61,457 bases of DNA from an uncultured Ectothiorhodospiraceae bacterium (lineage in GTDB: Bacteria > Pseudomonadota > Gammaproteobacteria > S012-40), in assembly GCA_964636675.1 (NCBI GenBank), contig CAZWUO010000002.1, positions 1 to 61,457 of the forward strand, in the 5' to 3' direction. Shown here in pieces: positions 24,386 to 30,198 of this stretch (positions within the stretch are counted from its first letter, which is position 1; each line of letters starts with the position of its first letter). The notes under the pieces were generated by a model, which saw only the letters and a program-made list of their open reading frames with translations, searched no databases and had not been told where the DNA came from. The translations under genes were made by a program, and so were the position numbers.

Positions 24386-26086
24386 ATGAGTGGAACAAAA
24401 GGCGGGACAGCAACGAACGCCTGTCCGGAATGTGACATCGGCCCGTTTAAACGTAATCATTATTTTACGGGTAAGTTATTGGTGGAACGGGATTTTACCG
24501 ATGAACAACGCTATTTCATGGACAAGCAGCGTTTACATAATCAGCAATTGCACGGCAGTGGTGTGGTGTGTGGTTTACGTGTGGTAGCTCATGATAATAC
24601 TGAGTGCCAGCATAAGTATGTGTGTATAGAGCCAGGTTTGGCCATTGATTGTTGTGGTCGCGAAATTCGTTTGTTAGAAGAAGAATGCATCGACATTACG
24701 CAATACGAAGCGGTGCAAGCGTTAATTAAGGAACAAAATGCCGCAGATCCCGATGATCCAGACGTGCAACGGAAACATGCATTACAGATTTGCATAAAGT
24801 ACCGAGAATGTCCTACGGAGAATATCCCGGTTTTATATGATGAATGTGGATGCGATGACACACAATGTGCGCCTAACCGTATCTTAGAGTCATATAGCAT
24901 TGACATCATTGTTGATCATGATTTAAGCAACGATGATGATGGTGACGAACCGTGTTGCGAAGCAATGTGGAAATCTGTAGAGGCTTGTCCTAGTTGTACT
25001 TCTAACGATGACAATGATGATTGTTTAGTATTGGCTACCATTATTGACTATATACCTGGGCAAGCGATAGAAGAAAGTCATATTGATAACCGCAGCCATC
25101 GCCAATTATTGTCTAGTACACAGACCCTAAGCGACATAATTCGTTGTTTGTGCGAACGCGAGCCAGGTGGTGGTGGGCCGGGTATCGATGATGTGCGAAT
25201 TACCATCGTCGCCTGTGATCAACCCGGTAGTGCAGTGGTACAGATGATTGCGGGTCAACGCGTGTTAGTGTTGGAAATTCCGCGTGGTTGTGATGGTAGC
25301 AACGGTCAGGACGGGGCGAATGGTCAGGACGGGGCGAATGGTCAGGACGGAGTTGGTTTGGAATTAGATTTGACTCGCATCAACCGACTCAGTTGGCGCC
25401 ACAGTCTTCCGGCGGTAGGTTTGGCAAATATTAAGCGTAACAATGGCGAAATTGCACAAGGTTTTATTATCGGTTTTACTGCTGAAGTGGTAGCAAGCAG
25501 GGTGGATTCCGATCATATCTTTCAAGTCGCGATAAAACATCGCTCAAGGGAAAGCAATATTCCTGTATTTTGCCGCTGTTACCTTGACGGTGAAGTTATA
25601 CCTGTGAAAAATCTACAAGACAATGCATTCGGTGTTATCGGTTTTGCCGAAGAATCTGTGAGCCCCTCAGATGGGGTTGCTTTTATTCCTCAATGGCAAG
25701 TCATCGATAATTCATTTGAATTGGATGATTTATTTATTACCTTGCGCGGTGATTTTGTCACCGACGTTTCAATGCGTGCGATTGATGCAGAGTTTGTACG
25801 CGGCAGCTTACCGACAGGTGACCGAGCACAGGGTAGTCCCTATGGCATTCAAGGTGGAACTTTTGAAAGTTGGTTCAGCCTAGATCCCAAAGCGACGAGT
25901 ACTGGTGCGCTTTCCATTAACCGTGCAGAGGTGGCATTAATCGCCAAATTACCGCGCGTAACCCCCACTCTCGCTAATAGAATCATTGCAAATAGACCTT
26001 TTAATAATAGTGATGAGTTGCTCAAGCTGAGAGGTGTATCAAAGACGTTGCTTGATGAAATTCGAAATTTAATTAACTTTGATTGA
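24386..26086 (+). CDS. fibre/baseplate-peripheral protein paralogue 1: Cys-rich N-domain, collagen-like GXY run, C-terminal helix-hairpin-helix
   Basis: AAGGAG RBS. It carries the shared N-terminal motif HYFTGKLLVERDFTDEQRYFMDKQRLHNQQLHGSGVVCGL and seven GXY triplets (GSNGQDGANGQDGANGQDGVG). The C-terminus is ComEA-like: INRAEVALIAKLPRVTPTLANRIIANRPFNNSDELLKLRGVSKTLLDEI. Confidence 0.65.
   Translation: MSGTKGGTATNACPECDIGPFKRNHYFTGKLLVERDFTDEQRYFMDKQRLHNQQLHGSGVVCGLRVVAHDNTECQHKYVCIEPGLAIDCCGREIRLLEEECIDITQYEAVQALIKEQNAADPDDPDVQRKHALQICIKYRECPTENIPVLYDECGCDDTQCAPNRILESYSIDIIVDHDLSNDDDGDEPCCEAMWKSVEACPSCTSNDDNDDCLVLATIIDYIPGQAIEESHIDNRSHRQLLSSTQTLSDIIRCLCEREPGGGGPGIDDVRITIVACDQPGSAVVQMIAGQRVLVLEIPRGCDGSNGQDGANGQDGANGQDGVGLELDLTRINRLSWRHSLPAVGLANIKRNNGEIAQGFIIGFTAEVVASRVDSDHIFQVAIKHRSRESNIPVFCRCYLDGEVIPVKNLQDNAFGVIGFAEESVSPSDGVAFIPQWQVIDNSFELDDLFITLRGDFVTDVSMRAIDAEFVRGSLPTGDRAQGSPYGIQGGTFESWFSLDPKATSTGALSINRAEVALIAKLPRVTPTLANRIIANRPFNNSDELLKLRGVSKTLLDEIRNLINFD
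25311..25350 (+). repeat. in-frame 18-bp tandem repeat (AATGGTCAGGACGGGGCG, about 2.2 units)
   Basis: Direct reading of 25311-25350. It encodes the NGQDGA repeats of the collagen-like run. Confidence 0.9.
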
Positions 26087-26096
26087 GGTAAAGACT

Positions 26097-27797: not shown

Positions 27798-27954
27798 CTA
27801 TTAATTCGTAACTATTCAGCGTACCTACAATGATTCGTGTTTGGTTTTGATTTATTGTCGAATTACGCCAGATCTGGTTTGAGTTAATGGCATCGGGACT
27901 CGGTGTTCGCAACCATGCGAACAACGGTATCTGATACCAGATAGGAGGAATAAG

Positions 27955-30198
27955 GTGTCAATAATACAGGCGGAACGGCCACAATTTTATGAAGGACAAT
28001 ACCTAGGTGCTGAAGATCTTGCGGCACTATTGGCGTATTTAAGGTCGCAAAATCGACGACATAATTTAGCAGGCCATAGTTGGGGTATCGCCACAGGTCT
28101 GCAACTTAAAGAAATGGAAGCACAAGGTGGCGGTGGGGCGATAGATGTTTTCATCCAGCCGGGATTAGCCTGGGATGGTTATGGCCGTCCTATTGTGTTG
28201 ACTGCGCCCCACAAATTGCCAATAGATAAATTTCAAGACGAACCTAATGGCTTGGTAAAAGTGTGGCTTAAATATAGTCAAGAAGACAGCGCCGCCGCTC
28301 GGCCAGGTTTTCGTGTTTGTGACAGGCAAGAGCAGTTTTCCCGTATTGCCGAATCGTTTGCGATTGCAGTGGGTGAGCGCAGTCATTTGCAACAACATGA
28401 TACGGTTACTATAGCGGGTGTTGCTGTAGATGCCTTAGAAGCATTTTATGCTTTAGATGCGAATGATAAATTGATTTGCGATGAGTCCATAGCCTTTCAA
28501 ACATTTCCAGAAGATGATAGTAAAGCCGAGTGGTTAATTCCGCTAGGTTATGTCAACTGGCAAGCGGTCGATAAACAATTTTCTAAACTTGCTGATGGTC
28601 AAGAAAAAAAACGCAGTCGTAGTGCGCGTGTTTACTGTGGCATCGTGGCTGAGGCCATTCATGCAGCGGATGGTGTCATCAGATTGCGCTCGCGGGGTTC
28701 TGATGCTCCAGCAATGGGTAGTTTAAACGCGGTATGCGAAAATCAAAAGTTATTATGGAGTGATGCAGAGAATCTCGATATAAACGAACAAGGAGAAGTG
28801 ACCGATTTAATTTGGTTGGAAGGTCGCACACGCGCTTTGGACGATATCAAGATGTTTGACAGTAAATTGGATTTTCGTAACGTTGGCGGTTTAACCGATG
28901 ATACGCCCTTGTGGTTGCAGCGAGTTGAAAACAATTTATTAGGAGGCAAGGATTTACAAATAATTATTGGCCAATCTGAAGATGGACTAAATCGCTTAAC
29001 GATAGGCCCAAAAGGTGAGAATGAAGAGGATCTTATTTTGCCACGGGTCAGCGTATTAGACAGCGGCGAAGTTGGCATAGGCACAGAACAGCCGCAAACT
29101 TTGACGCATCTTTTTGGTAGCAATAATCCAACTCTAAAAATCGAACTTGATGGCAGTGGAGGGCCATCAGGTCGGTTATCGTTGCGACAAAATATGGACA
29201 CTGGGGCAGACATTGTTTATGACGACAGTGCTGATAGCGCCGGACTGGTTGTTGAAACATACACTGCCGGGGCGGCAGCGAGCCGGTTGATTATCAAAAA
29301 CAACGGCAAGGTGGGCGTAGCGACTTTGTCACCTGATCATTTACTGCAAATCGGCGACGCCAGTGAACCAGTGTCTATGAGTCTGCGTGGACCTGATGGT
29401 GAAAGTGAATCTTCGGTATTGGCTTTTGAAGATGACGAAGGCACTAACCGCCGTTGGTTCAAATTGATACATGATACCGATGTTAATACCTTGACGGTCA
29501 GCTCAGCCAATATCGATTCCATCATGAGTTTTGTGCGCACCACGGGTAAGGTAGGTATCGGAACTGCCGGCCCAGCTTATGCGCTTGATATACGTCATTC
29601 GGTCAACAATGGGTTTAGTGTGGGCGAAGGTGGCGATGCAGGTAGGATCTGGACAGAATACCTTAACTTTGGACCGGCAATGATATTTTATGACATGGAT
29701 GATGTGGGTGGCAGCTTGCGTTTCCGTGAGAGCCCTAATACCAATGATGAAAACAATCCAGAATACGAAGCGGTTATTAGCGGCAAGCGCGGCAACATTG
29801 GTATTGGTACCACTGAACCAGATGCTGAGCTTGATGTGCGTGGTGATATTAAGCTGGGCAATAGTGGTGAACTTTATGCGACTTCCGGAGTTGAAAATTT
29901 GCGCCTAATCGTCGGCAGAATAAACAGTGGCGGCAATGAAGTCAGTGGTGAGGGATACACTTCGAGTCGTACCAGCGACCCGGGTAAATACAGGGTTAGC
30001 TTTCCTACCGCATTTGCAAGTATCCCGGTGGTTACCGTCACACTTGTGAATTCCGCAGGTAATGATCATGTTGCGACCATTAGAGCAATAAACAACAATC
30101 GCTTTGAGGTTTGGATAACTGATGTTGAGGATAATGACAATGACGCAGGAGTTTTGCAAAACAACGAATTCTGTTTTATGGCGGCGGGGTCGCGTTAG
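27955..30198 (+). CDS. tail-fibre-like protein paralogue 3
   Basis: GTG start after AGGAGG. It carries the shared N-motif QFYEGQYLGAEDLAALLAYLRSQNRRHNLAGHSWGIATGL. Fibre-type repeats recur four times: GEVGIGTEQPQTLTHL, GKVGVATLSPDHLLQI, GKVGIGTAGPAYALDI, GNIGIGTTEPDAELDV. The C-terminal beta-domain (YRVSFPTAFASIPVVTVTLVN...RFEVWITD) resembles an H-type-lectin fold. Confidence 0.7.
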   Translation: MSIIQAERPQFYEGQYLGAEDLAALLAYLRSQNRRHNLAGHSWGIATGLQLKEMEAQGGGGAIDVFIQPGLAWDGYGRPIVLTAPHKLPIDKFQDEPNGLVKVWLKYSQEDSAAARPGFRVCDRQEQFSRIAESFAIAVGERSHLQQHDTVTIAGVAVDALEAFYALDANDKLICDESIAFQTFPEDDSKAEWLIPLGYVNWQAVDKQFSKLADGQEKKRSRSARVYCGIVAEAIHAADGVIRLRSRGSDAPAMGSLNAVCENQKLLWSDAENLDINEQGEVTDLIWLEGRTRALDDIKMFDSKLDFRNVGGLTDDTPLWLQRVENNLLGGKDLQIIIGQSEDGLNRLTIGPKGENEEDLILPRVSVLDSGEVGIGTEQPQTLTHLFGSNNPTLKIELDGSGGPSGRLSLRQNMDTGADIVYDDSADSAGLVVETYTAGAAASRLIIKNNGKVGVATLSPDHLLQIGDASEPVSMSLRGPDGESESSVLAFEDDEGTNRRWFKLIHDTDVNTLTVSSANIDSIMSFVRTTGKVGIGTAGPAYALDIRHSVNNGFSVGEGGDAGRIWTEYLNFGPAMIFYDMDDVGGSLRFRESPNTNDENNPEYEAVISGKRGNIGIGTTEPDAELDVRGDIKLGNSGELYATSGVENLRLIVGRINSGGNEVSGEGYTSSRTSDPGKYRVSFPTAFASIPVVTVTLVNSAGNDHVATIRAINNNRFEVWITDVEDNDNDAGVLQNNEFCFMAAGSR

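Follow-up and report, generated by a model that had tools for sequence, protein, structure and literature searches.

Three adjacent genes with a shared, putatively baseplate-docking domain in an extracellular contractile injection system locus

Our question was what three neighbouring genes do in a 61,457-nucleotide stretch of DNA from an uncultured Ectothiorhodospiraceae bacterium (contig CAZWUO010000002.1; this whole stretch is called the window below). The interval 24386-30198 holds exactly three open reading frames (ORFs), all on the plus strand, whose products, P1, P2 and P3, begin alike and end differently. Judged by its gene content, the locus around them is an extracellular contractile injection system (eCIS). 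A preliminary description of the sequence, which had placed the three ORFs exactly where we find them, took them for candidate interchangeable fibres or receptor binders. Are these genes alternatives that compete for one place on the particle, or does each product have a place of its own? We consider it likely that they encode three different trimeric proteins at the periphery of the eCIS baseplate, an ancient and fixed trio in which each member has its own site and its own job. The proteins and their parts, with residue numbers in amino acids (aa), are the following.

24386-26086, plus strand: P1, 566 aa, with a shoulder domain, a Cys-rich neck, a short collagen stalk, a beta-sandwich and a ComEA-like helix-hairpin-helix (HhH) tail
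24425-24916, plus strand: shoulder domain of P1, aa 14-177, central helix aa 34-53 (NF053767 at aa 21-172; g3-HMM at aa 22-177)
25286-25348, plus strand: collagen-like GXY run of P1, seven triplets, aa 301-321 (regular-expression count)
25913-26074, plus strand: C-terminal HhH of P1 (HHH_3, ComEA/PsbU-like), aa 510-563 (Pfam E 2.7e-9)
26097-27797, plus strand: P2, whose shoulder carries a Cys-rich insertion and is followed by a helical/alpha+beta body and, at the C-terminus, a helix
26196-26600, plus strand: shoulder domain of P2, aa 34-168, central helix aa 55-75 (7b5h match and AlphaFold2 model)
27955-30198, plus strand: P3, 747 aa, which has a shoulder and a conserved shaft, with four fibre repeats, and ends in a variable tip; an AGGAGG precedes its GTG start by 8 nt
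27955-28410, plus strand: shoulder domain of P3, aa 1-152 (NF053767 at aa 5-151, E 1.6e-11; alignment A4)
29902-30195, plus strand: variable distal tip of P3, aa ~650-747, weakly Gp53-like_C / H-type-lectin-like

The shared N-terminal domain

The domain that the three proteins have in common is real, both by pairwise comparison and by comparison of families. Pairwise BLASTP of the proteins aligned the N-termini of P1 and P2 at E 2e-16 (28% identity over about 200 columns), those of P2 and P3 at E 2e-10 and those of P1 and P3 at E 9e-8, and nothing significant was aligned among the three further downstream, in keeping with the divergence that had been noticed there. Separate hidden Markov models (HMMs) built from the database homologues of each protein match the N-termini of the other two families (54-120 members, median E 3e-7 to 8e-22). 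The preliminary description had allowed that the similarity might lack support in profiles, and these cross-matches supply that support. Its estimate of the length has to be corrected, since the region it gave as roughly 60 aa extends over about 150 aa in P1 and P3 and over about 80 aa in P2, where the Cys-rich insertion follows. One R, one D, four G and one A are invariant across a 23-sequence alignment of all three families, and the motif of the domain, R-P-x-F-F-x-G-Q-x-L-x-x-x-D-L...R-x-H-N...H-G-W-G-V-x-x-G-L...P-G-x-A-x-D-x-x-G, spans a short strand, the central helix and the strands after that helix. Within the window no ORF outside the trio carries the domain. When its profile was run against 1.84 billion representative proteins it matched 13,353 clusters at E <= 1e-3 and 8,403 at E <= 1e-10, and nearly all of the 150 best matches listed match at the N-terminus.

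Comparison with known structures identifies this domain as a predicted shoulder of the TssK/Cis19/Alg19 type, that is, a baseplate-docking domain, which by sequence is homologous to the shoulder of Cis19. Cis19 (All3314) forms the crown of the thylakoid-anchored contractile injection system (tCIS) of Anabaena, with six trimers on the baseplate and flexible fibre-like protrusions (PDB 7b5h; Weiss et al. 2022). The combined N-domain profile from alignment A4 matches chain 7b5h_AA of this protein over residues 10-86 at E 9.8e-9. The combined profile was needed for this link, as single-sequence searches of the PDB with P1 and P3 matched distal domains only; P2 alone did match All3314, at residues 12-65, with E 1.5e-3 as a single sequence and E 7.1e-6 as a family profile. 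At residues 14-67 the A4 profile also gave a weak match (E 0.16) with the same motif to 9wt0_a, a 1443-aa "PKD domain-containing protein", which we take to be Alg19 because of its chain length and the description given in the AlgoCIS paper. Homology to the Cis19 shoulder, together with this weak likeness to Alg19, supports the earlier suggestion that the domain serves to dock tail-fibre-like eCIS proteins on the baseplate.

The predicted folds lead to the same relatives. AlphaFold2 models of P2 and P1 (pLDDT 68 and 75) have a long helix, at aa 55-75 in P2 and aa 34-53 in P1, which is followed by strands, and in Foldseek searches of the PDB the Cis19 chains of 7b5h rank first for both (P2, E 1.2e-6, probability 1.0; P1, E 2e-3, probability 0.96). 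Next come a baseplate protein of phage phi812 and then TssK (6n38 at probability 0.69; 6giy and 5y0e at E 0.16-0.28), and the matches in BFVD include phage models named "Receptor Binding Protein".

No Pfam family covers the domain when the whole proteins and their N-terminal 250 aa are searched at E up to 10. Scans of Pfam and NCBIfam brought up no TssK/VasE family, with a threshold as loose as E 10 for the first 250 aa, and this lack of a sequence-level HMM match for P1-P3 is one difference from TssK. In NCBIfam the N-terminal positions ~3-146 of the 392 in NF053767 (CIS13_fam) are matched by P1 (E 1.8e-22, 80.1 bits), P2 (E 2.6e-6, 26.9 bits) and P3 (E 1.6e-11, 44.1 bits). Given that these scores are far below the 370-bit equivalog cut-off and that the remaining ~250 positions are unmatched, the three proteins share the domain of this family but not its membership. 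The family name led us to look for Cis13 (All3316) of the tCIS; no 7b5h chain beyond All3314 was matched, either by sequence or by fold, and for this reason we do not claim homology to Cis13.

A domain of this kind has already been named, and it is structurally characterised in relatives. Nachmias, Wang, Feng, Jiang & Levy (Nat Commun 2026; PMC12923769) defined five N-terminal eCIS baseplate anchor domains. Among them eBAP3, which 1420 genes carry, is a shoulder-like domain of ~200 aa, eBAP4 corresponds to the initial 200 aa encoded by the tCIS crown gene, and eBAP5 is DUF6519; eBAP3 and eBAP5 loci use Tail_P2_I adaptors that are likened to TssG, and eBAP3 fibres are likened to TssK (PMC12923769). 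We infer that P1-P3 carry an anchor of the eBAP3/eBAP4 type, for which eBAP3 would be the label. As in eBAP3, the domain stands at the N-terminus of all three proteins (aa ~14-177 of P1, 34-168 of P2 and 1-152 of P3), its shoulder-like fold resembles the tCIS crown, TssK and phage receptor-binding proteins in the Foldseek and BFVD searches, and the genes lie immediately downstream of Baseplate_J and Tail_P2_I genes. The beta-propeller/collagen eBAP3 fibres that have been described (PMC12923769) correspond to longer orthologues of P1, which are annotated with a YncE beta-propeller and Collagen. The likeness to eBAP4 lies in Cis19 being the best match of the shared domain by sequence, where it is a homologue, and by fold; however, eBAP4 loci are said to have Afp11/12 homologues and no Tail_P2_I (PMC12923769), and the locus in the window does have Tail_P2_I. 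An identity with eBAP5 was ruled out, as DUF6519 gave no Pfam match at E up to 10. The remark that the N-domain was not a named family is thus outdated, because eBAP3/eBAP4 and the N-terminus of CIS13_fam cover it, while a Pfam model is still absent.

Conservation of the trio across genomes

In an arrangement of interchangeable fibres, the three proteins would compete for one docking site, particles would carry one of them or a mixture, and the target range would be broadened. This has some appeal, as the docking domain is common to all three and the distal parts differ, published accounts hold multi-fibre loci to be duplicates or acquisitions that evolve rapidly, and the P3 family does exchange its tips. 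We compared it with what is found in other genomes. The P2 family profile was used to fetch 80 loci from species-representative genomes, which span Gammaproteobacteria, Alpha-/Betaproteobacteria, Acidobacteriota, Gemmatimonadota, Chloroflexota, Verrucomicrobiota, Nitrospira, Actinomycetes, Armatimonadota, Myxococcota-type metagenome-assembled genomes (MAGs) and others. Together with the window and 4 further copies of relatives this made 85 loci, whose ORFs were classified by three family HMMs.

The content and order of the trio turned out to be fixed across phyla. The order P1-P2-P3 is present in 73 of the 85 loci, the others being accounted for by contigs that are cut short, ORFs that are split or overlaps in ORF calling. 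Where both flanks are complete (59 loci), the order is always gp25-Cis11-Cis12-P1-P2-P3-tape measure-ATPase (Cis11 of ~656 aa, Cis12 of ~752 aa), and Gemmatimonas aurantiaca T-27 has the same gene arrangement. This strain, Tistlia consotensis and Dyella are cultivable bacteria that have the trio. The anchors themselves are also specific to each paralogue. Over the first 90 profile columns, identity of the N-domains is 0.63 within the P1 orthogroup, 0.72 within P2 and 0.52 within P3, compared to 0.25-0.36 between orthogroups. Pairs from the same locus (P1-P2 0.37, P1-P3 0.25, P2-P3 0.29) are no closer than paralogues from different loci, and on this ground we rejected a recent duplication and gene conversion. 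Of 233 N-domains, 232 have their nearest neighbour within their own orthogroup; the triplication is therefore old and the neighbours have not been homogenised. Given this paralogue-specific conservation of the anchors, three docking sites fit well and competition for a single site is hard to reconcile with the data. With P2 also conserved over most of its length, we regard interchangeable fibres as an improbable explanation, and this part of the preliminary description does not hold up.

Operons with three eBAP3 fibres have been published before, and a comparison with that work is useful. Several fibre genes occur in 23.4% of loci and three in 173 of 2585, loop-mediated attachment was modelled for up to four fibres, and an operon whose three fibres differ in architecture and are all eBAP3 is drawn in Supplementary Fig. 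2e (PMC12923769). In Supplementary Data 5 of the same paper, Tistlia (2 genomes) and Flexivirga have three eBAP3 genes in a row, of which the first and second in Tistlia and the middle one in Flexivirga are entered as eBAP4 too (PMC12923769). Our own loci from Tistlia (L078/L060) and Flexivirga (L056) carry the P1-P2-P3 trio, and the catalogued triplets are probably these same loci. That paper treats such genes as rapidly evolving fibres (PMC12923769), whereas the trio here consists of ancient fixed orthogroups of which P2 is conserved. What we add is that in this widespread lineage the trio is a fixed ancient set with paralogue-specific anchors and not a group of fast-evolving duplicates. This could matter when target range is deduced from fibre counts or when particles are to be re-targeted, since only the tip of P3 looks like a specificity module.

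Other arrangements exist beside the trio. The N-domain is carried by seven IMG/VR contigs that are filed as viral (L085-L091). Two of them (L085/L086) have the same trio, three (L087, L088 and L091) have three anchor-bearing genes in a row that are more divergent, and in L090, whose ORF layout is the same as that of L089, Baseplate_J and a Tail_P2_I protein of 350 aa are followed by only one anchor-bearing fibre and then by eCIS_core toxins including Ntox11. The single-fibre locus L090 is thus an example of an arrangement other than the trio.

These viral contigs raise the question of whether the three genes could be the fibres of a prophage or tailocin, derived from a phage tail module and not from an eCIS. 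Matches of P3 to PHROG tail-fibre families (18345, E 6e-11; 9942, E 2e-10; "tail fiber protein") point the same way. However, the window holds the eCIS-specific AAA ATPase with a winged-helix domain, CIS_TMP, Pvc16_N and eCIS_core/DUF4157 proteins, and among the "viral" contigs themselves L090 bears Baseplate_J, Tail_P2_I and eCIS_core toxins and L085/L086 bear the same trio. We therefore hold a phage origin of this kind to be extremely unlikely.

Distal parts and probable roles of P1, P2 and P3

The conservation of the distal parts differs strongly between the three proteins, and from this we drew their probable roles. P3 is probably a receptor-binding tail fibre with a swappable end of ~100 aa, judging by its sequence. 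It combines a match to tail-fibre families with a variable C-terminal tip, as phage-type tail fibres do. Among orthologues aa 1-375 can be aligned in 96-100% and the last ~100 aa in only 28-36%; against the next relatives, P0243/P0244, identity is ~50% overall and falls to 15-23% in the last 100 aa, and P1 and P2 show no such collapse against theirs. Some P3 homologues go by the name "tail fiber domain-containing protein", and in many the end is formed by Peptidase_S74, Peptidase_G2 or other modules. The fibre repeats that had been noted are indeed present, as four copies of G-x-[IV]-G-[IV]-x-T, and the shaft repeats align with the Bdellovibrio MAT fibre (bd2133, PDB 8ond) at E 3e-4 and with phage tail fibres that have G-x-V-G-I-G-T repeats (the PHROG families, E 6e-11), although this match is limited to the P3 shaft and does not touch the N-domain. 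The lectin-like end finds weak backing in its Pfam matches (Gp53-like_C E 0.009, H_lectin E 0.08). P3 has five Cys.

P1 could be a short fibre in which a collagen stalk carries a beta-sandwich head, to which this genome adds the ComEA-like HhH end. It has more than 900 homologues, among them GAU_3430 of Gemmatimonas, a "collagen-like protein". Both the GXY run and the HhH had been recognised in the preliminary description, and they stand: the seven triplets give a weak match to Pfam Collagen (E 0.021) while PF01391 is precomputed on many homologues, and the HhH, besides its Pfam match, is matched by PDB 2duy at E 8.9e-6 with a Foldseek TM-score of 0.83. Among orthologues the anchor of P1 can be aligned in 94-96%, the neck, collagen and beta-sandwich parts in 62-81%, and the HhH end in 13-17%. 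P1 contains 24 Cys (4.2%), mostly in CxxC/CxC/CC pairs, 17 of which are invariant in phyla-spanning alignments.

P2 would be a conserved, Cys-rich crown or stabiliser subunit related to Cis19 and not a variable binder. In public gene calls of the identical protein it starts at ATG 26097 (566 aa), which leaves a gap of 10 nt to P1; the alternative TTG at 26079 would overlap the P1 stop by 8 nt. More than 1800 homologues share 35-41% identity with it over >90% of its length, and among them we found none with a name and none with a Pfam match. The Cys-rich region that had been noted is confirmed, with 34 Cys (6.0%), again mostly CxxC/CxC/CC pairs with about twenty invariant across phyla, and for the coiled coil there is a C-terminal helix at aa 541-565. 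In 99% of the loci P2 can be aligned over aa 25-400, so it does not belong to the proteins with a variable tip. The claim of variable distal receptor binders, which was made for all three proteins, is therefore probably right for P3 with its divergent tip and probably wrong for the conserved P2, and counting P2 as a "fibre" probably mislabels a conserved Cys-rich component. Its AlphaFold2 model aligns to Cis19 over ~470 columns. Beyond the first ~80 residues, though, the two are only 11-14% identical, and Cis19 is a protein of 1476 aa with long flexible Ig/PKD-type extensions, compared to the 566 aa, the Cys and the helical end of P2. Neither the richness in Cys nor the HhH end of P1 is taken up in PMC12923769, where the words "cysteine" and "HHH" do not occur.

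One of the three proteins, P2 in particular, might instead tether the machine inside the producer cell, in which case it would not be truly extracellular. There are precedents for membrane anchoring: TssK links the baseplate of the type VI secretion system to its membrane complex, and Cis13 of the tCIS spans the thylakoid membrane. A single strongly hydrophobic 19-mer also occurs in P2, at aa 325-343 with a Kyte-Doolittle value of 2.28. We rejected this segment as a transmembrane anchor, as it contains E and R, is predicted to be a buried helix (pLDDT ~90) and lacks hydrophobicity in the consensus of the family. P1 and P3 show no evident transmembrane helix, and released eCIS typically have what this locus has, a Pvc16_N cap, DUF4157 cargo genes and a fibre whose tip is variable, so that we find anchoring to the producer's membrane quite improbable.

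Two baseplate genes next to the trio bear on how the shoulders could be docked.

20169-22139, plus strand: Cis11/Afp11-like Baseplate_J wedge protein (Pfam Baseplate_J E 3.5e-21; TIGR02243 E 4.7e-92)
22136-24334, plus strand: Cis12, an NHL beta-propeller with Tail_P2_I (gpI/TssG-like) (Pfam NHL E 1.1e-9; Tail_P2_I, PF09684, E 9.9e-7)

Cis12 also matches NCBIfam CIS12_fam (E 6e-44) and TIGR02242 (E 8e-21), and a homologue of it lies immediately 5' of the P1 homologue in 59 of 59 loci. In AlgoCIS the shoulder of Alg19 folds like lactococcal phage receptor-binding proteins and TssK, and it grasps the C-terminal loop of Alg12 with its three central helices in a way "reminiscent of TssG-TssK" (Nat Commun 2026; PMC13314943). 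AlgoCIS particles without Alg19 rarely bind cells and fire more readily at low pH, their pre-firing state being destabilised (PMC13314943). By analogy with the Alg12-Alg19 and TssG-TssK pairs, Cis12 is most likely the docking partner of the shoulder domains. Cis11, which is encoded two genes 5' of the trio and has a homologue upstream of the trio in all 59 full-flank loci, is a possible partner as well.

The arrangement that we favour, three different trimers with a site each, can then be described as follows. P1, P2 and P3 would each form a homotrimer, as in Alg19-Alg12, Cis19 and TssK-TssG, and the three central helices of a trimer would close around a loop or tail of Cis12, the TssG-like protein, and may also contact Cis11. 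All three trimers would be mounted together, at different docking sites, on each of the six wedges. Simultaneous occupancy is suggested because the shoulder of each paralogue has been conserved separately since before the lineage spread across phyla. There are precedents for more than one kind of appendage on a baseplate, as that of the tCIS carries two different trimeric ones, Cis13 and Cis19 (PDB 7b5h; Weiss et al. 2022). TssK resembles the trio in its shoulder fold and in that its trimers dock on gpI/TssG-like wedge loops with more than one trimer per wedge. It differs in that TssK trimers are identical and link to a membrane complex, while here three different proteins have fibre-like distal parts. 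Alg19 (PDB 9wt0) likewise has the shoulder domain, with a motif that aligns with the N-domain of the trio; the difference is that AlgoCIS has one fibre gene instead of three, and that Alg19 is a protein of 1443 aa with Ig-rich distal domains whose sequence match has the E of 0.16 given above.

The strict one-to-one-to-one conservation of the trio could also mean that one P1, one P2 and one P3 each give one central helix to a mixed shoulder, which would make a single composite appendage per wedge. The adjacent order of the genes and the tight coupling of P1 and P2, by their short gap or overlap, would suit such a heterotrimer. The distal parts do not suit it, since the GXY run of P1 and the fibre repeats of P3 need three identical chains downstream. 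Additionally, the solved relatives Cis19 and Alg19 are homotrimers, and the P2 shoulder has a large insertion that is without counterpart in P1 and P3. A mixed trimer is, in our judgement, very unlikely.

A further reading gives more weight to the Cys residues. P1 and P2 are presumably assembled in the cytoplasm, and their Cys sites are possibly metal sites or disulfides formed after release. P1 and P2 might then not bind receptors and be ancient Cys-rich collar subunits akin to TssK and Cis19, with their own sites on Cis12, serving as a metal or disulfide lock of the baseplate and as a firing checkpoint, with P3 as the sole binder and the HhH of P1 as a tether of the particle to extracellular DNA or matrix. 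We think of the lock and tether as a possible but rather doubtful elaboration.

Several points weigh against three trimers at three sites, and looking at them can help to judge how far that reading reaches. What we know of the trio comes from genes alone, and from these we infer the presence of the proteins in particles, their trimer state and their binding partners. The assignments of P2 as structural and of P3 as binder are likewise suggested by conservation patterns only. The sample contains P2 by construction, and thus covers the P2-bearing lineage and not all eBAP3 loci, and the calling of ORFs in the locus comparison was crude. On the structural side, the AlphaFold2 models are monomers of moderate quality, and their Foldseek TM-scores are low (0.12-0.16) because they are multidomain monomers, so the fold match draws on local 3Di/sequence scores. 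The structural matches to TssK are weak (E 0.045-0.28), and the link to Alg19 is weak by sequence. Given that each is weak by itself, these last two links gain weight only in combination with the strong link to Cis19 and the published structures.

The surrounding locus

A complete eCIS operon surrounds the trio on the plus strand, with markers from Pfam and NCBIfam scans spread over 7384-42943. All the markers looked for at the level of the locus are present: sheath, tube, VgrG, gp25, Baseplate_J, tape measure, AAA ATPase (Cis15), Pvc16_N cap and DUF4157 cargo. The genes other than those already given are listed here.

Starting at 7384, plus strand: Pvc16_N cap protein
9239-12622, plus strand: giant sheath, 1127 aa, with Phage_sheath_1/1C domains confined to the C-terminus
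Starting at 12714 and 15294, plus strand: tube proteins
13259-15307, plus strand: normal sheath, 682 aa
Starting at 16186, plus strand: ORF with no assignment of its own, whose orthologue in the nearest relative (L001) has CIS_tube/LysM
16888-18102 and 18099-18881, plus strand: VgrG as two ORFs with a 4-nt overlap (Phage_GPD part and Phage_base_V part)
18878-19753: 291-aa ORF between VgrG and gp25, candidate spike tip or plug
Starting at 19750, plus strand: gp25
30211-30435, plus strand: small helical ORF, 74 aa, between P3 and the tape-measure gene
Starting at 30435, plus strand: CIS tape-measure protein (CIS_TMP)
Starting at 32350, plus strand: AAA+ ATPase with winged-helix domain
34674-35975, 36151-41250 and 41285-42943, plus strand: three consecutive DUF4157/eCIS_core proteins, 3' of the ATPase

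Some of these genes deserve comment. The split of VgrG looks native and not like a frameshift error, because L001 and Gemmatimonas aurantiaca (L003) have VgrG divided in the same way. The 291-aa ORF that follows may be a spike tip or plug protein. Pfam and NCBIfam scans gave no match for it, and it is poorly conserved, with a phmmer homologue in 6 of 59 related loci and an ORF of similar size at that place in L001 and L003. The 74-aa ORF may be a fibre accessory, assembly or chaperone factor; its membership in the module is uncertain. At its position L001 and the Gemmatimonas locus L003 have an ORF of 69-76 aa, and a phmmer homologue occurs in 22 of 59 loci. In the giant sheath aa 448-486 are FliMN_C-like (E 4e-7). 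Counts of promoter- and terminator-like sites within 24200-30500 were not above shuffled expectation.

The three DUF4157/eCIS_core proteins are candidate cargo or toxins. One of them, of 1699 aa, has a metallo-beta-lactamase-like stretch, and one has a weak SprT-like match. The nearest genome is a Gammaproteobacteria MAG (L001, 85% protein identity), which has a PT-HINT/intein-type protein in the cargo position, so that the cargo region differs and the structural genes are conserved. An RND efflux operon (OEP, HlyD-type and AcrB-type; 45516-51312) flanks the eCIS locus on one side, and upstream of the locus lies a NarL/LuxR-type response regulator (5953-6597) that could regulate the cluster. 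The sequence of the window was found in hydrothermal-vent metagenome runs.

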